From positions 6,624 through 70,623 of the forward strand of contig JAFUSR010000004.1 of the NCBI GenBank assembly GCA_017467585.1: DNA of 64,000 bases, read 5' to 3'. This DNA comes from Clostridia bacterium. Lineage in GTDB: Bacteria > Bacillota > Clostridia > Christensenellales > UBA1242. The translations under genes were made by a program, and so were the position numbers. Below, piece after piece: positions 7,492 through 17,956 of this stretch; within the stretch, counting starts at the first letter, position 1; the number at the start of each line of letters is the position of its first letter. The notes below the pieces were generated by a model, which ran no database searches, had not been told where the DNA came from, and was given only the letters and a program-made list of their open reading frames with translations.

Positions 7492-8070
7492 TTATTTGTT
7501 TTTGCAATAAATTCTGTAAACTAGTGGCAAATAAATTGCCGCTTTAACACTCAGTTTTTTGTTTTTGATAAAGTCTAAGACTTTTTCAATTTCAACTTTA
7601 AAAAACTTTATGTCTTCTTTCTCTTGCAAATTTTGCTTTCCAAACTTTTCAATTGTTGCCTCAAACACAACAGAACTTTCGTCTGTCATGCCCTCTGAAC
7701 TGAAACAAGCATCTGTGAGCTTTGTGATTTTTGAAACTTTTTCTGCGCCAATTTCTTCTTTAAGTTCGCGAAGAGCCGACTCCTCTTCTGTTTCGCCCTC
7801 ATCAACAAGCCCAGCAGGAAAACCCCACACATAATCGTTGATTGGATATCTAAATTCTTTGGTTAAAATTATTTTTGTCTTTTTGTTTTCAACAACATAA
7901 GGAATAATGACAACAGCGTCTGCTTTTGCACTGTTTGTTTTTGCAACCAAACTGTGCTCTGAATTTCGAGAAGACATGTCCCAAACTGTGCCATTTTCGT
8001 AGTACAATCTGTATAGGTTTAAAAACTTGTTACTTGTTTGTTTTTCAATTTTTTTAATTTTCATTTTCAC
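7492..8070 (-). CDS. NUDIX hydrolase (ADP-ribose pyrophosphatase-like)
   Basis: Nudix box PAGLVDEGETEEESALRELKEEIG; EFRYP and SEGMTDE motifs. Confidence 0.9.
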   Translation of the reverse strand: MKMKIKKIEKQTSNKFLNLYRLYYENGTVWDMSSRNSEHSLVAKTNSAKADAVVIIPYVVENKKTKIILTKEFRYPINDYVWGFPAGLVDEGETEEESALRELKEEIGAEKVSKITKLTDACFSSEGMTDESSVVFEATIEKFGKQNLQEKEDIKFFKVEIEKVLDFIKNKKLSVKAAIYLPLVYRIYCKNK

Positions 8071-8708
8071 CTCAGCCCCACGATAAACGTTGAAAGAACA
8101 TCTAAAAGTTTTTTATATTTTTCAAAACCTTGTTTGTGCCAAGCAATCTTGCTGTTAATTTCAATTTGAATTGTCCACAGATTATTAAATTTATTTTTCA
8201 TTGAGCCAGCGATTGTTCTTTCTCCCGCGCTGAAAGGAACGTCTAAATAAACATTAAATCCAGCACCTGCAAGAGACTTAACAAGCTCACGATAAATTTC
8301 GGTGTTTGTTTCAACATTTTTGCCTCCGTTAACACCAAGGTTAATGTCACATTTGCGTTCGGGGGCAAGACTGTGAATATCTAAAACATATTTAATGTTG
8401 TTTTGTTTGATATAGTTTATTAAATCTGATTTATAGCTAGAAACTTCGTCATAATTGGCATCATCACGATTATTTTTTGTCTTCACAATCGCATGACACT
8501 CACACAGCTTTTGCAAATGAAGAAGTGTGTTCACAGTTCCTGGCTCAGCATATTTTGGCTTGTTGTTGCGCCACTGTCTTACCCCATGTGGTGCAGACAA
8601 AATAACACTGCTGTTTTTGCCGCACAAAAAGACATGGTCTTTGTTTTTATGTTTGCTTAAAAACTCTTCTCTATCTTTCTTTATGCTTTCATGTGTTGTT
8701 GTTTTCAT
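8067..8708 (-). CDS. Hypothetical protein, N-formylglutamate amidohydrolase-like
   Basis: ILSAPHG, VLDIHS, IQIEIN motifs of the Zn-exopeptidase/FGase-like fold. Confidence 0.55.
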   Translation of the reverse strand: MKTTTHESIKKDREEFLSKHKNKDHVFLCGKNSSVILSAPHGVRQWRNNKPKYAEPGTVNTLLHLQKLCECHAIVKTKNNRDDANYDEVSSYKSDLINYIKQNNIKYVLDIHSLAPERKCDINLGVNGGKNVETNTEIYRELVKSLAGAGFNVYLDVPFSAGERTIAGSMKNKFNNLWTIQIEINSKIAWHKQGFEKYKKLLDVLSTFIVGLR

Positions 8709-8781
8709 AAATAAATTATACTATATGTTTTTTGTTGTCCGCAATAAAAAAGCACCACTTTTGTGGTGCACCATTTTATTT

Positions 8782-9255
8782 TTATTCTGCAACAATTTCG
8801 GCGTCTTTAACCCATTTTGCAAGGCTTTCTAAAGCTTTTTTGCATCCGTCCTTGCTAGCATAACCTTGTTCGCAGTTGCAAAGAAGTTCTCCATTTCTCG
8901 CAAACAGGCGATAACGATATTTTTCTGCTTTATCTAAATAAATTTCAAACTTAGGATTTGGCAATTCTTCGTGTTTTTTAAGTGTTAAGTCTTCAACGTG
9001 GGCTCCAACAGTTTTGCGAACACTCTCAATTCCGGCTTTGCAACCAGAAAGCGCTGCATATCCCGTTCCGCCACCAACAACAAGTGTTTCGCCATTGCTA
9101 ACAACCAAGCGGTAGTTATAAAACCCTTTTGCAGTTTTATAATAAACAAATTGTGCTTTTGGTTGTGTAACCTTTGCTGGGGCTTTTTCTTGTGCCTTTG
9201 GTTGTTTTTTTGCTGGGGCAGCCTTCTTTTGTGGTTTTGTTTGAATTTTTGCCAT
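8782..9255 (-). CDS. YegP/DUF1508 family protein (two repeats)
   Basis: Two FxxYxxxxxxYxYRLxxxNGE...GY...CK repeats; K/A/P/Q-rich N-terminus; GGAGG RBS. Confidence 0.85.
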   Translation of the reverse strand: MAKIQTKPQKKAAPAKKQPKAQEKAPAKVTQPKAQFVYYKTAKGFYNYRLVVSNGETLVVGGGTGYAALSGCKAGIESVRKTVGAHVEDLTLKKHEELPNPKFEIYLDKAEKYRYRLFARNGELLCNCEQGYASKDGCKKALESLAKWVKDAEIVAE

Positions 9256-9497
9256 AAATAAATCCTCCCTTATATGCCCTTATTATACTCTCTGTTGTCT
9301 GGTTTTCAAAACAAAACACAATATTTTTAAAAATTTTGTCAGTTTTTGTTAATATTATTATCAATATTATTAGTATTTTGCGGTTTTTGTGTGTTATTCT
9401 TTTTTTGAGGTTATCTTTATGAAACAGAAGAAAGAAAAAGAGGAGCAGGAATAATTCCTGCCCTTTTTTATTTGACAAAAAATTTCTCAAAAAACAC

Positions 9498-9527
9498 TTG
9501 AAACCCATTATATATGTGTGTTATAAT
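9498..9527 (+). promoter_or_regulatory. sigma-A promoter of tRNA-Ser
   Basis: TTGAAA-18-TATAAT with extended TG. Confidence 0.7.
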
Positions 9528-9537
9528 CATTTCACTT

Positions 9538-9628
9538 GGAGAGATACTCAAGAGGCCAAAGAGGGCACCCTGCTAAGGTGTTAGTACGAGCAATCGTAGC
9601 GCGGGTTCAAATCCCGCTCTCTCCGCCA
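9538..9628 (+). tRNA. tRNA-Ser (GCT)
   Basis: Acceptor GGAGAGA/TCTCTCC-G-CCA, anticodon stem GCACC/GGTGT with loop CTGCTAA, long variable arm, T-loop GGTTCAAATCC. Confidence 0.95.
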
Positions 9629-9633
9629 AGCGT

Positions 9634-9664
9634 AACCTAAATCGAACATCGGTTTAGGTTTTTT
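9634..9664 (+). terminator. Hairpin/terminator after tRNA-Ser
   Basis: AACCTAAATCGA-aca-TCGGTTTAGGTT followed by T-run. Confidence 0.75.
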
Positions 9665-9678
9665 GTTTTAATCAAACA

Positions 9679-9703
9679 AAAAGCCGGAACAATTCCGGCT
9701 TTT
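9679..9703 (-). terminator. Terminator of module-1 cargo gene
   Basis: AAAAGCCGGAA-caa-TTCCGGCTTTT adjacent to stop at 9705. Confidence 0.8.
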
Positions 9704-9704
9704 A

Positions 9705-10808
9705 TTAATGCTTAAATATAAATAATCCTGTTTCGAGATACAAAATAATAACTGTAAACACAAACAGCACAACCATAATTATATCCCAAAGGCTTGCCCT
9801 GGTCTTTCTTGTATACGACAACAGCAAAATAAGTGGTGCAGCAAATCCTAGATAAAAATTAAAACCAATGCCGTAAAACAAAAACCAAGGTGAAACATAA
9901 ATAAGGCCAAAGTCAATAGCACAAACAACAATCATGATAACCGCAGAAATTACACTAATTTCAAGAGAACTTCTGTTGCTTTTTGCGTAAGTGTCATATT
10001 CTTCTGGCGTTCCACCCCATTTTGCAAACAGAAATTGTCTTAATTTGATTATAAGTGCAACACCAAAGAAAATTGCATATATTGTTATTGATCTGCATGG
10101 CATAATTGCAAGAGCTGCAACTGGCAATTCCACAATACCAGTGTTATTGAGTCCATACAAAACCGTAGACCCAACAGCAAACAAAATAGGAATAATACAC
10201 ATGAACCTGAAAATTAAAATTGCACCATCTTTTTTTATCTTTTTTGGTGTATAAAACAAAAAGAAATAAAATAATGAAAACAACGACAAATCTACAAACA
10301 CGTTGTAGTTAATAACTTTGCCAAACACTTTTTTGGCAACCATATCAGCAAAGTCATATGCATCGGCAGTGCTTTCGCTAACAACTTTGCCAATGCCCAT
10401 AAGATATCTGTAAAACACAAGAATAACAAGCAAATAAATAAGAATAGCTATTGCAGAATAAATAATGAGCATTTTTTTGATTTTTTCTCTGCTAGTCATG
10501 ATAATGCAAAAGTTTGCTGCCAAAAACATAGGCAACGCAAAAATGGACAAAACTTCAAGCACATCTGCAACATCTTTTACACCGGCTGGAACTTCCACCA
10601 TTTTGTAAACCAAGTTTAAGCACACACAAACCTGTGCAAAAAACATCAAAACAAAGCCCAAAATTTTCATGGTTCTGCCAGAGAATATTCCACGATATTT
10701 CAAATCTGGCAAACCCATTAGTTTATCTATTCTTTGTCTGTTTTTGTTTGGAACAACAATTTGTGCTTGTTGTTCGTTTGTTTCAACAATGTTTTCTTTT
10801 GTTTCCAT
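9705..10808 (-). CDS. Hypothetical multi-pass membrane protein
   Basis: 367 aa with about nine hydrophobic segments; own promoter TTGCTA-17-TATAAT at 10843-10815. Confidence 0.75.
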   Translation of the reverse strand: METKENIVETNEQQAQIVVPNKNRQRIDKLMGLPDLKYRGIFSGRTMKILGFVLMFFAQVCVCLNLVYKMVEVPAGVKDVADVLEVLSIFALPMFLAANFCIIMTSREKIKKMLIIYSAIAILIYLLVILVFYRYLMGIGKVVSESTADAYDFADMVAKKVFGKVINYNVFVDLSLFSLFYFFLFYTPKKIKKDGAILIFRFMCIIPILFAVGSTVLYGLNNTGIVELPVAALAIMPCRSITIYAIFFGVALIIKLRQFLFAKWGGTPEEYDTYAKSNRSSLEISVISAVIMIVVCAIDFGLIYVSPWFLFYGIGFNFYLGFAAPLILLLSYTRKTRASLWDIIMVVLFVFTVIILYLETGLFIFKH

Positions 10809-10881
10809 ATTTTTATTATACCAAATTGTAAAACGTTTAGCAAGTTATGGGTTTTATTTTTAATTAGTTTGCTTTTTTATA

Positions 10882-10906
10882 GGTTCAAATCCCGCTCTCT
10901 CCGCCA
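10882..10906 (+). repeat. Exact direct repeat of tRNA-Ser 3' end (att-like core)
   Basis: GGTTCAAATCCCGCTCTCTCCGCCA identical to 9604-9628. Confidence 0.92.
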
Positions 10907-11079
10907 AAAGGAACTGCATTCTAATATGCGGTTCTTTTATTTCTGTCAAAATGGTGTTGCAGGTTTTGTCATACCGACTAAAAAAGTTAAACAAAAAACA
11001 CCACTTAACTATCTAAAGAAAAAATATATCCAGTATCTTTTACAAATAAAAAAATGGTTTAGCGATTGCTAAGCCTTTT

Positions 11080-11370
11080 TTATTTTAAATCTTCACAAGT
11101 AGTTTTTATAAGATTATTTAAATAATCAACATCATCTAAATTTTCAACCATATACATTGTTTTTGCACTCTCATAGGGTATTTCTTCAGCGAGTGAAAAG
11201 CCTTTATTTGAGTGTGTTTTTTTAATTAAAAATCTATCATCATATATACCGCCAAACAAGATACCATTATGATAAAGTAGAAATTCTCCCATCATTGCTT
11301 TGCAAGTAATATTATCAAGTTCTCTCAATTGTTCTAATATAAAATCTTTAAATTGGTTTGATGATGACAT
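11080..11370 (-). CDS. TfoX/Sxy N-terminal domain protein
   Basis: FKDFILEQL, KAMMGEFLLY, GGIYDDRFLIK, PYESAK pattern of small Firmicute TfoX_N proteins. Confidence 0.8.
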   Translation of the reverse strand: MSSSNQFKDFILEQLRELDNITCKAMMGEFLLYHNGILFGGIYDDRFLIKKTHSNKGFSLAEEIPYESAKTMYMVENLDDVDYLNNLIKTTCEDLK

Positions 11371-11383
11371 AAATTACCTTCTT

Positions 11384-12127
11384 TTATTTTATAAGTTTTT
11401 CAAAAGCATTTGCATTTAATATTGTGTTAGATATAAACTTTCCTTTATAAAAATTAGCCCAATTATTGAATATACAAGGAGCATTTTTTGCTTTCTCTAG
11501 GGTGTCAATTTTTACAAAATTCAATTTAATATTTTTATTGTTTGCATAATTTGACAATTCTTTAACTTCATACTCAACATAAGGACATTCGTTACTATAA
11601 TATATTGTAAAATCTTTATTCTCAATCTGCATTTTTCTAGCAGTGTCACTAAATTTAGGTGTTGGGCTGTTATCAAATTGTAAAGCAAGCAATTCATAAT
11701 CAGCTATTGTATCAACAACTTTGAATCCAAAGTGTTCAAAAAATGTTTTTTCTCCCAAAAATGGTTTTTTCTTTTTTGCTACAATATTGCAAAGGCCACT
11801 CATCTTCTTTGATTTAGCATCGTTTATTGCATATTCAAGTAATTCTTTCGCAATACCTTTTCCTTTAAAACTACCAGCAACCCATAAGCAATAAATATAT
11901 TCATAGTTTTTACCTAAAACAGGAGCCCAAGCAGTTTCTATTGGCTCATACTCAATAAATATCTTTCCACGAGCATTTAATTTGCGAAAGATATGACCGC
12001 CTTTTAGTTTGTCTTTAATCCATTCCTTTTTACAATTTACCCCTTCTTGATGTTTTGGGTCTCCTATAGCACAACAAATATGCTCATCTTCAATATTGTC
12101 TAATGTTAGATTTACAAAATCGTTCAT
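11384..12127 (-). CDS. GNAT acetyltransferase with YoaP domain
   Basis: EHICCAI, FIEYEP.E.AWAP, CLWVAGSFKGKG, C-terminal AKNAPCIFNNWANFYKGKF. Confidence 0.85.
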   Translation of the reverse strand: MNDFVNLTLDNIEDEHICCAIGDPKHQEGVNCKKEWIKDKLKGGHIFRKLNARGKIFIEYEPIETAWAPVLGKNYEYIYCLWVAGSFKGKGIAKELLEYAINDAKSKKMSGLCNIVAKKKKPFLGEKTFFEHFGFKVVDTIADYELLALQFDNSPTPKFSDTARKMQIENKDFTIYYSNECPYVEYEVKELSNYANNKNIKLNFVKIDTLEKAKNAPCIFNNWANFYKGKFISNTILNANAFEKLIK

Positions 12128-12215
12128 AATTTTCTCCTTAAAATAACAATTTGATTATAACATAAAATTTTTATTTTGTATAAATGTTTACCGAATTCAT
12201 TAAATAAAATTTATT

Positions 12216-12251
12216 TTTTACCGTTAGAATAGAATCCCTACTGTCCCGCCA
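12216..12251 (+). repeat. Degenerate tRNA-3'-end-like junction (att-like core 3)
   Basis: TTTTACCGTTAGAATAGAATCCCTACTGTCCCGCCA; same AAT-N12-GCCA spacing as tRNA end; followed by hairpin 12263-12293. Confidence 0.6.
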
Positions 12252-12473
12252 CAAGTGAACTGTACGCACACTCGTGAAAATGAGAAGTGTGTATTTTTCT
12301 TTTTACACGAATGTTTTGGTATCATTATTCCATTTGATAAACCCAATGTTGACAATGCTGGTTGGGAAAATTGGAAAACTAAAAAACGAGATGAATATGG
12401 AAACTTTTGTAAATAAATATAAAAAATAAAGAGAGAATGTGTTAATATTCTCTCTTCGTTAGTTTGTAGATTC

Positions 12474-13121
12474 TTATTCTATAAAATTCTCAATTTCTTT
12501 TTGTAGCAAACGAAAAACATTTGCAACTAAATATCCATCAGCAATTGCATGATTTAATCTTACAGTAACAGGCATCATGAAATGTCCATTTTCTTCTCTA
12601 TATTTTCCCCAATTTATAATTGGAGCAAAAAACAAATGTCCATCAGGCAACTCAATGTTTAATGAATCATATGAAAACCATGGGATATATGATGCATCAA
12701 ACCAGTTTGGGTGATTTTGCATGTCAAGGCCATATTCCCTCGTTTCTTTTGCTCTTTCTATATCTTTCAATGCATTTTTATAAAAAGTTGGATAATCATA
12801 ATAAAACTTCGTATATACAGGAGTGCAAGTTTCTGTATCATCATGAAAAACATATTGAGTTGGATTGATCACATCATAACAAATCAGTTTATCTTCTTTA
12901 TAGAGATATCCCATTTTGTAATCATCTCTTGAGTTAAGAACTTTTGACAGAATGTATAAAAAGTTTATATAAAACTTTGTTCCAGTTTTCTTTGAATATA
13001 AAACAAGATCAGTAACATTAATTCTTGCTGTTATTGAAGTTGAACATTTACAATCTTTAGAAAAATGTTCAAAGACTCCTTTTCTGTAGTATTTGTCTTT
13101 GTCTATAACTTTATAATTCAT
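12474..13121 (-). CDS. cat: Type A chloramphenicol O-acetyltransferase-like protein
   Basis: YYRKGVFEHF, SYIPWFSY, PIINWGKY, catalytic motif LNHAIADGY. Confidence 0.85.
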   Translation of the reverse strand: MNYKVIDKDKYYRKGVFEHFSKDCKCSTSITARINVTDLVLYSKKTGTKFYINFLYILSKVLNSRDDYKMGYLYKEDKLICYDVINPTQYVFHDDTETCTPVYTKFYYDYPTFYKNALKDIERAKETREYGLDMQNHPNWFDASYIPWFSYDSLNIELPDGHLFFAPIINWGKYREENGHFMMPVTVRLNHAIADGYLVANVFRLLQKEIENFIE

Positions 13122-13196
13122 AGTTTTTCTCCAATGTAATTACATTATAGCACAATATTGTTTATATTGTGTAAAAAAGATCTAACTTTTAAAAAA

Positions 13197-13231
13197 TTTT
13201 ACCGAGAGATAGAATTCTAATGCTCCCGCCA
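13197..13231 (+). repeat. Degenerate tRNA-3'-end-like junction (att-like core 4)
   Basis: TTTTACCGAGAGATAGAATTCTAATGCTCCCGCCA, about 27/36 identical to 12216-12251 by manual alignment; followed by perfect 12-bp inverted repeat 13231-13264. Confidence 0.6.
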
Positions 13232-13331
13232 ATCAAACTTAAATTAAGCTGATTAAGTTTGATTTGGGTTGTTTTGCGCTATTGTATTATTAGATAATTT
13301 AATTGTAACAAACAAAAAACTGAATAAAAAT

Positions 13332-13365
13332 AAAAATGGCCTAGCGAACAGCTAGGTCATTTTTT
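13332..13365 (-). terminator. Terminator of surface-protein gene
   Basis: AAAAATGGCCTAGC-gaaca-GCTAGGTCATTTTT. Confidence 0.8.
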
Positions 13366-13376
13366 ATGAATATTTA

Positions 13377-16106
13377 TTAAACTTTGTTTTTATCAGATTC
13401 AGCGAGTCTTGCCGCAGCCTCTTCTTTTGTTTTAAACACGTTGAATTTTAGTGCTCTGCCTATTCTGTTTCTGTGATTAATAACAATATACCATCTCTTT
13501 CTCTTTGCAAGCAAATAGATTGGCTTTATTTCTCCATAAACAAGTGTATATCTCTTAAAACACTTGCGTGCTACAAGCAAATATATTAAACAGAACAAGA
13601 TTAGTGCTCCTAAGAAAGAACCAATGGTTATTAATGTTACTTTAACATTGAAGTTATGAACAAGTGTCTTATATTCTGCCTCTGATTCTGTCAATGTCTC
13701 ATAGTTTGCAATCACTGTTTTTTCTTCTTCGGTCAAATCATCAAAGAATGCTCTTGCATCATCAATTAGCGCTTTAGATTCTTTTGTTCTTTCAACTGTG
13801 CCTATCTCTTCAATTTTTTGTGTTACAACTTCTGTTTTTGCTTTGCTGAACACTGTTTGTAAATCTTCAATTTGTTCTGCAATTTGTGCACTTGTTACGT
13901 TTGCTTTGTCAATAAAGTCATCTTGAGAAACAGCTCTTTCTGCCATCATGTCTGCATCAATATCTGCATAACCTTCTGCAATCTTTCCGTGATATGTGTC
14001 TACTTTTTCAATAAGTGCCAAAAGTTCTGCTTTGTCTACTTGAGCTATTGTCACTGTAAAGCTTGCTTCTGCAATTGCGTTGTAGTTGTCATTTCCAAGA
14101 GCTTTATAGAAAACTGTGTATGTTGTAGCAAAACGACCTTGTGGAATTGCCGAGTTATATTCTGTTGCAAATTCTTCTTCTGTGTCTGGGTTTGTGTATG
14201 TAATTTTGTAAACAATATCTCCAGAATCATTGTATCTAAGTTCACCAGCAGTAATCAGTGCAAGGTCTTCATTATTATAAATAAGTCCTTCAACTGCTGC
14301 AGGAAGAGTTGCATACTCCGCATTTGTTTTTGTGATAACAACTGTTTGGCTATTGCGATATGTTGTCCAACCTGTTTTTGTAACTTCAAAGTAAACTGTG
14401 TATGTTCCAACATTTGTATAAGTTGGAGCTTCTATAAGGTTATATGTTCCTTCATTTGTGCCATACATAACTGTTGCATCTGTTGGGTTTGTTGGAACAA
14501 CTGAAATTGTGTGTGCAGTTCTGTCATATTCTGCTTCATAGCCATCAAACGCAACAACCATGTTTTGTGTAAAGTAAGCATAAAGTGTTGGCGCACTATC
14601 TTTATCCCATGCTTTGCAACCATGACCAGCATTGTCTATATATTTATTTCCCGCACCATTTTCTTGGTCATAATATCCATCAAATGTGTATCCGTCAAGC
14701 GTTGGGACAGACACATTAGGAAGCATTGCATCATATGTTGCTGTAACTCCCGCGTCTCCGCCTTGACCTTCTCCATTATTGAATGTTAGGTCATAAGTTT
14801 TTGCTGTCCAATTTGCCGTGTATGTTCTGTTTCCAATTGAACCTTTTGCAACGCTTACGCTTTGATTGGTGTCACCAGAAAGTCCTGTTCCACTCCAACC
14901 CTTGAAGGTGTAACCTGTTCGAGTTGGGTTTGAAATTGTAAATGCGTTGGTTGTCACATTATATGAACTTGGATGTGTGGTTCCATGTGTTCCACCATTT
15001 AAGTTATATGTGATTGAATATGTTATCAAATCTGCACTGATTGTGCCAAAATCTACAGTTGTTGTGCCGACTGTTTGTGAGGAAACACGATAAATTGCGT
15101 TTTCTGTGTCTTCTGTTCCAGAAACAAGTGTCCAGTTTGATTTGTGTTTGTATCCTTTTGCAAGTTTTGCAAACGCATAAACTGTTGTGCCACTATTAAA
15201 CTTGCTTCCACTTGCGCTTCCACTTGTTGCATTTTGATTTGATGAAAGGTAAACTGAACTTATCCCAGTTCCAGCAGTTACATTAACTGCTTGTTCTGCA
15301 ATTTCCCATTGTGCTGTAAGATTGAGTGAGGATTTAGCTGTCGGTGTATCAAACTTGCTAAGTGTTGGTGCACCATTCGCATTATAATATTGAGTTGTTC
15401 CATTTGCGTCATAATATCCCAAAAATTTGTAGCCGGACTTTGTTGGGATATTTATAGAAGAGTAAGGAAAATAATAATTAACAGACGCATTATCACTTCC
15501 TCCAGAACCACCATCCTTATTAAAATTTATTGTTACTGGTTTACCATAATAATAATTAACATTCGTGAAAATATTAATGGTGTTTGCATTATTGTTTTTA
15601 ATAACATAAGTGACAACACTTGAAGAAGTGTCAAGTAGTTCTGCTTGATAAATTTCAGAGGAAGTGCTATCACCAGAAGCTCTTGCTATATAATTTGTTG
15701 TCGAAGAATTTTTGCTGCCGTGTGTTATTGACAATTCAATGGTCGCTTGTTCACTTCCATACACCCTTAAGCCAGCATATACTAGATATTTCACTGTAGT
15801 GCTATCGTTGTTTGTGATTGTTATTGATGCTCCAGCCGACAAAGAAAAAAATCTAGTATCTGATACTGTTTTTTCTGAGCCTCCACTCCACGACCAATTA
15901 TCTTTTGTTCCGCTTGTAGGACTATCTGCTATGCTGGTAAATAATAAACTTGCAGATTGTGTTTTATCGGTATCATAATCGCTTATTGCCGCATAAGCTG
16001 TGTTCGCGTTTGATGGAATGCCTAGAAAAGCAGCACCAGCCATAAGCACAAGAGCTATTGCAATCAAGCCACTAATCAGCCAATTTTTTCTTTTTGTTTT
16101 TTTCAT
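13377..16106 (-). CDS. Cell-surface protein with InlB B-repeat-like (Listeria-Bacteroides) domains and C-terminal membrane anchor
   Basis: Signal peptide MKKTKRKNW...AYA; three PTxxGYxFxG(Y/W)...AxW/F repeats; helical stalk; C-terminal TM plus basic tail; GGGAGG RBS before 16106. Confidence 0.8.
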   Translation of the reverse strand: MKKTKRKNWLISGLIAIALVLMAGAAFLGIPSNANTAYAAISDYDTDKTQSASLLFTSIADSPTSGTKDNWSWSGGSEKTVSDTRFFSLSAGASITITNNDSTTVKYLVYAGLRVYGSEQATIELSITHGSKNSSTTNYIARASGDSTSSEIYQAELLDTSSSVVTYVIKNNNANTINIFTNVNYYYGKPVTINFNKDGGSGGSDNASVNYYFPYSSINIPTKSGYKFLGYYDANGTTQYYNANGAPTLSKFDTPTAKSSLNLTAQWEIAEQAVNVTAGTGISSVYLSSNQNATSGSASGSKFNSGTTVYAFAKLAKGYKHKSNWTLVSGTEDTENAIYRVSSQTVGTTTVDFGTISADLITYSITYNLNGGTHGTTHPSSYNVTTNAFTISNPTRTGYTFKGWSGTGLSGDTNQSVSVAKGSIGNRTYTANWTAKTYDLTFNNGEGQGGDAGVTATYDAMLPNVSVPTLDGYTFDGYYDQENGAGNKYIDNAGHGCKAWDKDSAPTLYAYFTQNMVVAFDGYEAEYDRTAHTISVVPTNPTDATVMYGTNEGTYNLIEAPTYTNVGTYTVYFEVTKTGWTTYRNSQTVVITKTNAEYATLPAAVEGLIYNNEDLALITAGELRYNDSGDIVYKITYTNPDTEEEFATEYNSAIPQGRFATTYTVFYKALGNDNYNAIAEASFTVTIAQVDKAELLALIEKVDTYHGKIAEGYADIDADMMAERAVSQDDFIDKANVTSAQIAEQIEDLQTVFSKAKTEVVTQKIEEIGTVERTKESKALIDDARAFFDDLTEEEKTVIANYETLTESEAEYKTLVHNFNVKVTLITIGSFLGALILFCLIYLLVARKCFKRYTLVYGEIKPIYLLAKRKRWYIVINHRNRIGRALKFNVFKTKEEAAARLAESDKNKV

Positions 16107-16313
16107 TTTTTCCTCCCATTTTTTGTATAAAGAATTGATTATGAATATAGTTGCGCACATCAAGTATATCACATAAGTTTTGGTAATGTATCATTTTTTG
16201 ATTAAGTTTTCAATTTAATTCAATATGCTTGTTTTTTTGTAATAATTGCATTTAACTATTTACTTTGAAGCTGTTTTTGTGATACAATTTGGTTGAAAAG
16301 GATAACTTTTTAT

Positions 16314-16808
16314 ATGGAAGCAAAAAAAAGAAAATATCAGAGCATTCTTTTGTTGAGTGGAACGGCCCTCATTGTTTTTAGTATGTGGGATATTTTAAAA
16401 ATTATTTTTTCTTTCGTCTTTAGCCCAACTCAACAATTTATTATTATGGCGCTTTTCGATTTCAACGAACAAACCATTATCTACGCAATTATTATTTTTG
16501 CCCTGCTCGCCTTAATAGAATTTTTGATTAACTTGTTTATTGCACTGAGCGCAAAAGCCGAAGCTCGTGGAAAAAAGAAAAGTGTTTTTTATCTTGTTGT
16601 GTTATGCATTCTTCTTGCAGTTTTTGTTGCAAATTTTGTTTCTTCGCTAATTATATATATTCCCGCAATTACCGACATTCTCTCCGCTATCGACGCAATT
16701 ATTATGTCTGCGGTTAGTTTTGCGAGCATATTTGCCTTGACTGAAATTTTGATTTCTTCAATCGGGTTGCGCAAAATCAACAAAAAGGAGCAACAACAAT
16801 GCAATTAG
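16314..16808 (+). CDS. Hypothetical membrane protein (about 4 TM)
   Basis: Hydrophobic ORF overlapping the start of the next gene; start could be 16293 or 16314. Confidence 0.7.
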   Translation: MEAKKRKYQSILLLSGTALIVFSMWDILKIIFSFVFSPTQQFIIMALFDFNEQTIIYAIIIFALLALIEFLINLFIALSAKAEARGKKKSVFYLVVLCILLAVFVANFVSSLIIYIPAITDILSAIDAIIMSAVSFASIFALTEILISSIGLRKINKKEQQQCN

Positions 16809-17956
16809 ATTTTCACTATTATGCAACATATTGCAGCGCCTTTTTGGCAGGATATTCTCACAAGGAAAGCATGGAAATTTGTTATAGCGCGCAACTTGTT
16901 GACTGTATGTCTAAAACATTTTTAAAAAAGATAAAAGCCAGCCCTATTGCTGCAACAACTCAGCTTTCTCTTGAAATGGTTGATTCTAACAAAGACATTC
17001 TTGAGTTGCAAAACATAACAAGAATTTGGTCTTCTTTTCACTTTTTGCCTTATGACCTCTATGCTAATATTAAAGCACCAAAACCTTATAGAGATAAATA
17101 TAGACTGATTTGCAACACAAACAGCGACCTTCTTGTGAAAACCGTTAACTTGGCAAAAAAGAACGCAACTCTTCAGTCAACTGGAATTGCCATGCACGTT
17201 TTGGCAGACACTTGGGCACACAGGTACTTTGCTGGTGTTCCATCACTCGTTATTAACAACACAAACTCATATTTTTATGAGGTTACTTACAAAGATGGTC
17301 AAGAGCAAACAAGAAAAATCAAATTTAACAACAACCCTTTTAAAACTGACGACATTGAAAACGCAATCTACACAAAAAGCATGTTTCAAACAAGTGAAAA
17401 TGCAATTATGAACTTAGGACACGGTCGCGCAGGACATTTGCCTGACTACAGTTTTATGCGCTACAAATATATGCCTGCGTGGAATAAATATGAGGTTATA
17501 TTTAAAGACAACCCTTCTGACTATTATCATGCTTTTTGCCAAATGACCTATGCTCTTAAATTTTTGCATGGCGACAGAACCTCTTTTGAAAAAGACACTT
17601 ATGAGTTTGACCAGCTCAAAAAATATGAAAACAAAATAAAAGAAATATTAGAAAAACGCCAACTAGATTCTTGCAACGACTGGAAAGCTTTTGGTGAGAG
17701 TTTGTCTGGACAAACTATTGAACCTTTTGACCTTGGCAAATATGAAGAAGAATATGTTGCTGCAACAAAACAAGCCAAAGACGACACGTTTTTGGGCAAG
17801 TTTATAGAAGCCGCCATTGCTCAAAAAAGCATGGTTACAAATGAAATTGCGGATTCTAAAAACTTTCTTGCTGGCAGGTCTATAGACAGAAAGAAACGTC
17901 GAGCAAAACGTCTTAGCAAACTGCTAAAAAAGAATAAAAAACAGGGGGTGCAATAA
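16799..17956 (+). CDS. DUF6765-like protein, putative Zn-dependent phospholipase C/P1 nuclease-like fold
   Basis: N-terminal DFHYYATY, FHFLP, HVLADTWAH, LGHG..GHLPD motifs. Confidence 0.6.
   Translation: MQLDFHYYATYCSAFLAGYSHKESMEICYSAQLVDCMSKTFLKKIKASPIAATTQLSLEMVDSNKDILELQNITRIWSSFHFLPYDLYANIKAPKPYRDKYRLICNTNSDLLVKTVNLAKKNATLQSTGIAMHVLADTWAHRYFAGVPSLVINNTNSYFYEVTYKDGQEQTRKIKFNNNPFKTDDIENAIYTKSMFQTSENAIMNLGHGRAGHLPDYSFMRYKYMPAWNKYEVIFKDNPSDYYHAFCQMTYALKFLHGDRTSFEKDTYEFDQLKKYENKIKEILEKRQLDSCNDWKAFGESLSGQTIEPFDLGKYEEEYVAATKQAKDDTFLGKFIEAAIAQKSMVTNEIADSKNFLAGRSIDRKKRRAKRLSKLLKKNKKQGVQ

Follow-up and report, generated by a model that had tools for sequence, protein, structure and literature searches.

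Recombinase-less miniature modules at a tRNA-Ser gene of a rumen Clostridia bacterium: a probable accretion array derived from large serine recombinase elements

A tRNA-Ser(GCT) gene in the genome of a rumen Clostridia bacterium (GCA_017467585.1) is followed by a row of modules of about 1 kb that carry one or two genes each and no recombinase gene, and the question raised by this locus is what built the row and whether its modules move. The DNA analysed here (the window) is a stretch of 64,000 nucleotides, C2:6624-70623 of this genome (G000), which comprises 973,583 bp in 4 contigs at 37% G+C, is rated 93% complete and belongs to a small-genome (~1 Mb) rumen bacterium, one of the reduced-genome gut Firmicutes. 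Our answer is that the locus is probably an accretion array, comparable to the staphylococcal cassette chromosome (SCC) or to arrays of cis-mobilizable elements (CIMEs), that consists of miniature, recombinase-less derivatives of large serine recombinase (LSR) elements at a tRNA-Ser-targeting LSR attachment site, probably moved in trans. This answer draws on what was observed directly, namely the anatomy of the array, the homology of its ends to LSR elements, the association of LSR genes with tRNA genes, variation bounded by short core motifs, and the sharing of a module across genera.

The array begins at the tRNA-Ser(GCT) gene (9538..9628, plus strand; found by ARAGORN and by Rfam at 54.4 bits), which is the sole ARAGORN tRNA of the window, has a TG-extended promoter-like site upstream (9498..9527, plus strand, 11/12 consensus matches) and heads the locus in 19 relatives as well. 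Its 3' end (..TCTCTCCGCCA) is the attachment site and is functionally attB-like. A sequence-only reading of this region had described four junctions, spaced 1278, 1345 and 980 bp apart, that share a layout of core, hairpin, terminator, minus-strand cargo and promoter-like site, and the ARAGORN and Rfam, repeat, folding and site scans agree with that description. The motif YCCGCCA is present at all four junctions: at the end of the tRNA gene, at the end of an exact repeat of the last 25 tRNA nt (10882-10906; two copies in total in the 973-kb genome at <=3 mismatches), and in the form CCCGCCA ending at 12251 and 13231. The heptamer alone is not rare, because the window contains 20 copies on both strands vs 3.5 expected from shuffles; the four in the array lie on the same strand within 3.7 kb, every one at a gene boundary. 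The hairpins directly 3' of the four cores have folding energies of -13.8, -15.8, -15.7 and -14.4 kcal/mol (z = -4.6, -7.2, -2.9 and -5.0). Terminator-like sites in the region number 10 vs 3.2 expected, and promoter-like sites overall are not enriched (33 vs 33.3 expected).

Module 1 (9629..10906, 1278 bp) comprises a hairpin (9634-9660), a minus-strand terminator (9679-9703), a minus-strand open reading frame (ORF) of 367 aa (9705-10808) that is multi-pass membrane-like and has no family match, and a minus-strand promoter-like site with a TG-extended -10 (10815-10843), and it ends in the exact 25-nt tRNA copy. Module 2 (10907..12251, 1345 bp) has a left end that we call hairpin2-type (10907-~11015), a plus-strand terminator (11056-11075), minus-strand ORFs for TfoX_N (11080-11370) and GNAT+YoaP (11384-12127), a promoter-like site of the same kind and strand as in module 1 (12154-12182) and, at ~12223-12251, a relic of an LSR gene 3' end with the core. 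Module 3 (12252..13231, 980 bp) starts with a different left end, the 'hs' element, which is a hairpin with a conserved tail (12252-~12422). It continues with a terminator acting on both strands (12428-12457), a minus-strand chloramphenicol acetyltransferase (CAT) ORF (12474-13121) that falls in NCBIfam 'CatA-like family 3' and is not bona fide CatA, and a further such minus-strand promoter-like site (13144-13173), and it closes with an LSR-end relic and core (~13197-13231). The hs element is conserved over ~130-170 nt across copies and is a conserved non-coding end; a small ORF within it (12255-12416) was rejected as a gene, its frame being broken by a 1-nt indel in the congener G004 and by 1-nt indels and a 66-nt insertion in other copies. 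With the exception of the tRNA, no Rfam family was detected in 9300-13500 (E<=0.1), hairpins and hs element included, in a scan that did not use a dedicated attC model.

Past the last core lies a flank (13232..13376) with a hairpin (13236-13270) and the minus-strand terminator (13340-13356) of a surface-protein gene with Listeria-Bacteroides repeats (13377..16172, minus strand). The sequence-only reading had counted this adhesin as the cargo of a further module. We rejected it as a cassette: the gene is 88% identical in G004 and has a homolog behind an array in the family genome G077, and it is a conserved neighbour that closes the array. The same reading had seen no integrase in the array, and there is indeed no recombinase ORF in 9629-13231. 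When 30 LSR proteins were compared with window positions 9001-17000 by tblastn, a single match was better than E=0.009 (L134 aa 453-521 to 10737-10979, E=4.8e-7); since this match rests on the core and the hairpin2 flank, there is no longer LSR pseudogene in that range.

The identity of the cores at 12251 and 13231 is central to the origin of the modules. The exact core had been taken to mark the newest insertion and the degenerate cores to be decayed tRNA ends, an interpretation that is not supported. Because they are homologous to LSR gene 3' ends, the two degenerate cores are the last ~30 nt of LSR genes and thus element-borne half-sites, not decayed tRNA ends: the 29 nt ending at 12251 (junction J3) are identical at 24/29 positions to the end of the LSR gene of the family genome G114. 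The arms to the left of 12251 and 13231 are alike, and the TAGAAT..CCCGCCA arm occurs nowhere else in G000. An LSR ORF runs through a ..CCGCCA core in tRNA orientation in G077, G163, G099, G025, G160 and G000.

LSR homologs were found in 72 of 151 family genomes surveyed, and the layout was examined for 30 LSR loci. At 11 of the 30 the stop codon lies inside a convergent tRNA gene (7 tRNA-Ser; the rest including Lys, Ala, Val and Asn), one locus is 53 nt from a tRNA-Ser(gct), and seven read through a same-orientation tRNA-like core. Among 80 fetched LSR relatives, 68 have at least 30 nt past the stop, with a convergent tRNA at the stop in 6 of these 68 (Asn, Lys, Glu); the L185 contig ends in an LSR end, CCCGCCA and the start of a hairpin2-like flank, and no free attP was demonstrable among the 80. 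A search of IMG/VR for the exact core plus hs pattern, sought as an unintegrated attP, returned 0 matches.

Intact elements have the order tRNA-Ser, left flank, intervening genes, LSR and core. The 23-kb element of G114 follows tRNA-Ser(tga) with a hairpin2-type flank, a rolling-circle Rep gene, PcfJ/PcfK, a LexA-like repressor, a leucine-rich repeat (LRR) surface protein, the LSR and the core, and elements of the same design measure 4.96 kb in G160 and 12.4 kb in G025. On contig C4 of G000, tRNA-Ser(tga) is followed by a 6.8-kb element whose 505-aa LSR ORF crosses the CCCCGCCA core. The domains of this LSR (PF00239, PF07508 and PF13408) are the same three as in the G114 LSR, a Resolvase, Recombinase and zinc-ribbon architecture that applies to the parent elements; the window modules keep only ~30 nt of such a gene. 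The sequence-only reading had proposed a search for recombinases next to the core motifs, and the LSR at the tRNA-Ser(tga) of G000 is one, but its type is not cognate to the array and no tyrosine recombinase lies near a tRNA-Ser. The left end of module 2 matches the flank after the G114 tRNA-Ser(tga) at 80% over 134 nt. Module 2 therefore has both ends of a G114-type element, with no integration or transfer genes, and in G077 its two end types stand 104 nt apart with nothing between them. That modules might be remnants of a large integrase-bearing island had been named beforehand as grounds for giving up a cassette interpretation; as to origin this is what we find, module 2 having both ends of the 23-kb element, yet the miniatures appear to spread as units.

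G000 also holds a second tRNA-Ser array (C4:27130-36393 plus C3:24362-24454). On C4, a decayed full tRNA-Ser(tga) is followed by 2.1 kb with MFS and HIT genes, the intact tRNA-Ser(tga), the 6.8-kb LSR element and the CCCCGCCA core, past which lie a 269-nt mini-module with an inverted T-arm copy and then 20 nt that are identical to the 3' end of tRNA-Ser(cga). Behind tRNA-Ser(cga) on C3, the initial ~190 nt of this mini-module are found again, and a similar mini-module of 164 nt occurs in L050, a contig from a foreign, higher-GC Clostridia metagenome-assembled genome (MAG). A second LSR gene of G000 (C2:460920-463479) encodes 502 aa, 33% identical to the C4 LSR, and is located directly after a rolling-circle Rep gene (PF23343) and before comM and dprA; the pairing of Rep and LSR is also seen in the 23-kb G114 element.

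The attachment sites of serine integrases are ~40-50 bp long and have inverted half-sites around a central 2-bp crossover. By eye, inverted repeats around ..CC/CGCCA amount to 9 bp in the reconstructed junction of the G000 LSR element and 7 bp in the module 2 ends, both over a 46-bp span. GTTC or GTTA is located at -29..-26 from the core end in LSR-type arms and GTTC at -24..-21 in the tRNA, a 5-nt offset of arm and tRNA that we take to recall the offset between attP and attB half-sites of serine integrases. The crossover would lie within or next to CCGCCA.

Variation at the locus was read in the congener G004 and in metagenome contigs of four ruminant-gut runs from four studies (X4, X5, X6 and X7), aligned to 8000-17000 at 88% likeness, wherever the contigs cover that range. 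In G004, the tRNA-Ser is joined straight to the sequence right of the 12251 core (window 12246-12402, 87.5%), and modules 1 and 2 (9629-12251, 2623 bp) are missing exactly core-to-core. A joint from 9630 to 10909, that is from the tRNA to module 2, leaves out precisely the stretch that separates the 25-nt repeats, module 1; it was seen in X5 on a contig of 3333 nt (side 164) and in X4 (side 24). Another joint, seen in two studies (X7, side 41; X4, side 23), runs from 12245 to 9623, going back 2623 with 6 shared letters, and has the module 2 right end followed by the core and then by the module 1 left end, which is the product expected if the tRNA core recombines with the 12251 core. The X5 and X7 joints are the solid ones, both X4 joints having sides <30 nt. 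The breakpoints of modules 1 and 2 together, of module 1 and of the module 2 to module 1 joint thus fall at cores, as had been predicted, but those of a loss of the cat segment (G004, X6) do not.

A single type of reaction could account for these variants. Each module of ~1-1.3 kb would keep only the left end of a parent element (a hairpin that doubles as the tRNA terminator plus a conserved flank of hs or hairpin2 type), one or two cargo genes under a promoter and terminator of their own and, as its right end, the final ~30-40 nt of the LSR gene, leading into the ..CCGCCA core. Insertion beside the tRNA would restore a reusable tRNA-plus-flank junction, so that elements and mini-elements could stack; a motif shared by the left ends a few bases past the core (..GAACTG.. 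or ..AAC..) would keep the tRNA junction usable after each insertion. An internal junction, composed of a right end and the next left end, would have an attP-like make-up, and a cognate LSR supplied by a co-resident or visiting element would recombine it with the tRNA junction, acting on the mini-modules in trans and presumably needing no directionality factor. Blocks of modules would be excised, duplicated, re-inserted and reordered as a result, and the same reaction would cover the empty site of G004, the contig that lacks module 1 and the joint of module 2 to module 1, be it from a circle, from a tandem duplication or from a reinsertion.

Both module ends and whole modules recur elsewhere in the family. 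By our own tally among the matches listed in a DNA search of 401 family genomes, the hs left end (window ~12232-12405) is present in about 35 and the hairpin2 end (window 10882-11015) in about 24 of the 400 other genomes, often in several copies per contig, 1-5 kb apart. A search for the same cassettes behind other tRNAs, suggested by the sequence-only reading, was successful for module 3, which is found core-to-core behind tRNA-Ser(tga) in G105, a member of another genus (window 12246-12588 at 89% and 12490-13239 at 95%). Identity there begins at the left core and ends 8 nt past the right core, both flanks are unlike those of the window, and a nearby homolog of the module 1 membrane gene has 65% identity only. 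Together with G004, X5, X4 and X7, this bears out the proposal that the modules are discrete at CCGCCA cores and are gained, lost, reordered and shared there. In G077, an LSR and core are followed by an hs end with a Vat-family acetyltransferase gene (1250 bp), a core, a hairpin2 flank (104 nt), a decayed core and the surface protein, and G194 has an LSR, a core and, further on, a hairpin2 flank with TfoX and a core; in these two genomes recombinase-bearing and recombinase-less units stand together in one array. G229 carries a 1049-bp unit of hs end, terminator and GNAT gene between two cores, the same cassette lies behind tRNA-Ser(gga) in L050 with an exact 20-nt copy of the host tRNA end, and G247 has two hs ends 1181 bp apart.

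Could decay alone have produced this pattern? Successive full-size LSR elements might have decayed in place to immobile scars of ~1 kb, the differences between genomes reflecting independent integrations and deletions and the sharing of module 3 the transfer of a larger tract. We consider this account unlikely, though it deserves weight: it fits the homology of module ends to the ends of 5-23-kb LSR elements, the failure to find a cognate LSR in G000 and the off-core loss of the cat segment in G004 and X6, and order of arrival could explain why the hs and hairpin2 types of G077 stand in the opposite order to those of G000. Independent decay would, however, have had to spare the left end and, time after time, to halt at one and the same ~30-40 nt of the LSR end, and the arms at 12251 and 13231 and in G105, G194 and G229 all start alike (TTTACCG..). 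It is also difficult to reconcile with module 3 having the same extent in two genera, behind two tRNA-Ser genes and between flanks that are unlike on both sides, with the joining of module 2 to module 1 via a core in two studies, or with the hs-ended GNAT cassette in the foreign host L050, where 8.4 kb of sequence contain no LSR.

Conservation of the hs and hairpin2 flanks (75-88% over 100-170 nt across genera) raises a different possibility, that the tRNA end, these flanks and the short arms served as anchors for homologous exchange during natural transformation, with cargo swapped in the absence of any site-specific enzyme. Module 1 could be lost in this way between the 25-nt repeats, and TfoX, DprA and ComM-like genes are present in G000. 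Nevertheless, the right anchor would be only ~35 nt long and would differ between modules, the identity of module 3 stops at the left core and no more than 8 nt from the right one, and the joint of module 2 to module 1 shares only 6 nt. Considering also that the arms are LSR gene ends and that LSR genes lie in the same arrays, we regard homologous exchange as quite improbable.

The 25-nt direct repeat of the tRNA 3' end that flanks module 1 is the usual signature of a classic tRNA island made by a tyrosine integrase, and G000 does contain an island of that kind, 16.3 kb long, at tRNA-Leu(aag). Yet an origin of the array from such islands, or from an integron-type system with its integrase elsewhere, is in our judgement very improbable. 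The tRNA fragment expected of an island is present, but no integrase was found in 9629-10906; of the three PF00589 genes of G000 (C2:330025, C2:335769 and C2:547840), two are beside tRNA-Leu and none is near a tRNA-Ser; and the remaining cores, which are LSR ends, have no more than 6-7 nt in common with the tRNA. An integron-type system is further opposed by the orientation of the cassettes against the tRNA and by the promoter-like site in each of them. No second copy of the last 20 tRNA nt (<=4 mismatches) was found downstream of tRNA-Ser(gct) in the 19 relatives, a search that is blind to LSR-type cores. The tRNA-Leu(aag) island itself (C2:335518-351902) consists of the tRNA, a tyrosine integrase gene and, at its far side, an exact 20-nt copy of the tRNA 3' end, and a second tyrosine integrase is encoded beside tRNA-Leu(caa), 5 kb from the island.

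Several observations weigh against an LSR-driven accretion array. Canonical serine integrases are known to recombine only attP with attB, to need a directionality factor for the reverse reaction and to leave occupied sites alone; that an occupied site is used again is what we infer from the arrays. A cognate LSR was not found in G000 (93% complete), and the two LSRs of G000 share 33-38% identity with the G114/G077 type and differ from it in their arm, so the modules may be stranded in this genome without an LSR of matching arm. The exact 25-nt copy at 10882-10906 is not an LSR-type arm and does not fit the proposed origin; derivation from LSR elements of the convergent class was rejected, as three such elements have no tRNA-end copy (>=14 nt) within 20 kb. 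The cat segment was lost off-core both in G004 (12402 to 13318) and in X6 (12391 to 13304, side 38). In G105 and G077 the module 1 gene follows the array on its downstream side, and in G004 it sits at a locus that is not a tRNA gene; from this placement, module 1 may be native flank or displaced native DNA instead of a cassette. The metagenome joints come from assembled contigs at 88% likeness, and those at <95% likeness or with sides <30 nt may stem from other organisms. Finally, the GNAT gene by itself is simply widespread, with 460 relatives and 1 of 80 fetched loci near a tRNA-Ser.

The 460 relatives of the GNAT+YoaP protein (11384-12127) come from one-genome-per-species contigs, and the best 80 of them are 79-91% identical and belong to MAGs labelled Clostridia, Bacilli, Erysipelotrichaceae, Mollicutes and, in one case, Bacteroidaceae. 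In a bovine run, this gene reaches up to 487x summed contig depth and the remaining locus ~5x. It is an unusually conserved, widely exchanged gene. We rejected it as a marker of the cassette, since the likeness is confined to the ORF and the one locus beside a tRNA-Ser among the 80 is L050.

How does the proposed LSR accretion array compare with known systems? SCC composite islands and CIME accretion come nearest to it; tycheposon arrays are similar in layout, and integrons only in function. According to PMC10581047, SCC and pseudo-SCC elements of staphylococci, which use Ccr at the rlmH 3' end, likewise depend on a recombinase of the large serine type and integrate into the 3' end of a conserved gene, which stays active. 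The same source describes a short repeat at every junction and tandem cassettes, some of them recombinase-less and needing Ccr in trans, often with resistance-type cargo. In our arrays, too, tandem cassettes that include recombinase-less ones are each bounded by a short repeat, YCCGCCA. The best NCBIfam matches of the G000 LSR are CcrB and CcrA, at scores far below the cut-offs (145.6 vs 900 bits and 107 vs 700, respectively); it is a member of the large serine recombinase superfamily only, not of the Ccr family. Unlike in SCC, the target is tRNA-Ser(gct), elsewhere (tga) or (gga), instead of rlmH, the recombinase ORF spans the attachment site, a unit measures ~1 kb and has one gene vs tens of kb, and the hosts are reduced-genome gut Firmicutes. 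CIMEs and the accretion arrays of the ICESt1/ICESt3 type in Streptococcus, as described in PMC5704250, resemble the present array in the loss of integration and transfer genes with attL and attR retained, in tandem arrangement and in composite excision. They differ in having tyrosine integrases and conjugative elements as their source, whereas the ends here are LSR-derived, the units are far smaller and one miniature frame holds varied cargo.

Integrons are alike in function, being a fixed platform at which small cassettes are stacked, lost and reordered at short cores beside a hairpin site, and to that extent the integron-like label of the sequence-only reading was apt. The label fails in other respects: a PF00589 search of G000 gave no IntI tyrosine recombinase, there is no attI/Pc and no attC, and in place of a shared promoter each cassette has its own promoter-like site and terminator and faces the platform, while the sites go back to the end of a tRNA and to that of an LSR gene. 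The tycheposon arrays of Prochlorococcus islands (10.1101/2020.12.28.424599) also hold cargo at tRNA genes, with partial tRNAs between tandem elements, degenerated remnants further in and tandem junctions in cultures. The elements themselves are multi-kb units with replication genes, 910 of 937 of them with tyrosine recombinases (same source), whereas the junctions described here are LSR ends and the units one-gene miniatures. For Tn4451-type elements (TnpX/TndX), PMC5704250 describes how one LSR performs both excision and integration of a small element with a cat gene, by a 2-bp crossover and with no directionality factor, which offers a precedent for the reversible behaviour proposed here; Tn4451 differs in encoding its own recombinase, in low target specificity that is not tRNA-directed and in not forming arrays. 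The Islander paper of 2014 (PMC4383910) states that serine recombinases were not known to target tRNA genes. Our text searches of the literature returned no description of LSR-derived one-gene cassettes at tRNA-Ser, and later work or supplements, including those of the tycheposon and Islander papers, may hold cases.

A more far-reaching proposal, which we put forward tentatively as one possibility, is that these arrays represent a third natural cassette-capture platform beside integrons and SCC. It would be run by an LSR clade whose own coding end is half of the attachment site and for which tRNA-Ser 3' ends are reusable. Left ends that mimic the native flank would make the occupied site attB-like and internal junctions attP-like, and cassettes of one self-expressed gene could be cut out, duplicated, put back and shuffled between genera and between tRNA-Ser isoacceptors by the integrase alone, with no directionality factor.

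Some further observations concern tRNA genes and the surroundings of the array. A conserved, GC-rich element of ~165 nt with an A/T-rich palindrome at its end is present in G000 at C2:204229-204488, C2:515962-516221, C2:588820-589095, C2:681464-681908 and C3:107-327. It is located directly upstream of five tRNA genes (Asn, Thr-cgt, Leu-taa, Lys-ttt, where it occurs twice in tandem, and possibly Ile), and each time a copy of the initial ~19 nt of the tRNA in question lies before it, at a spacing of 184-187 nt. It matched no Rfam family and resembles a miniature element whose insertion into the D-loop has duplicated the 5' end of the tRNA. Upstream of the array, the window carries at 9420-9455 an 11-codon stub (MKQKKEKEEQE*) of an ABC-transporter gene, which in two related metagenome contigs without tRNA-Ser at this position is full length and directly follows a DUF1508 gene. 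Looking for strain variants through this upstream DUF1508 gene gave two short contigs with the ABC-transporter gene in place of the tRNA locus, which are uninformative on the array.

The finding shows how bacteria of the ruminant gut with genomes of ~1 Mb exchange accessory genes one at a time at a fixed site where insertion does no harm; acetyltransferases (CatA-like, Vat-family and GNAT) and proteins of the surface or membrane are among the cargo of the arrays. It also documents serine recombinases that are aimed at tRNA genes, and island finders that require a tyrosine integrase would miss such arrays. If the reversible, factor-free behaviour is true, the LSR enzymes with their short sites would be attractive tools for recombination. 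The arrays would also give a traceable route for the flow of resistance-type genes in livestock microbiomes.

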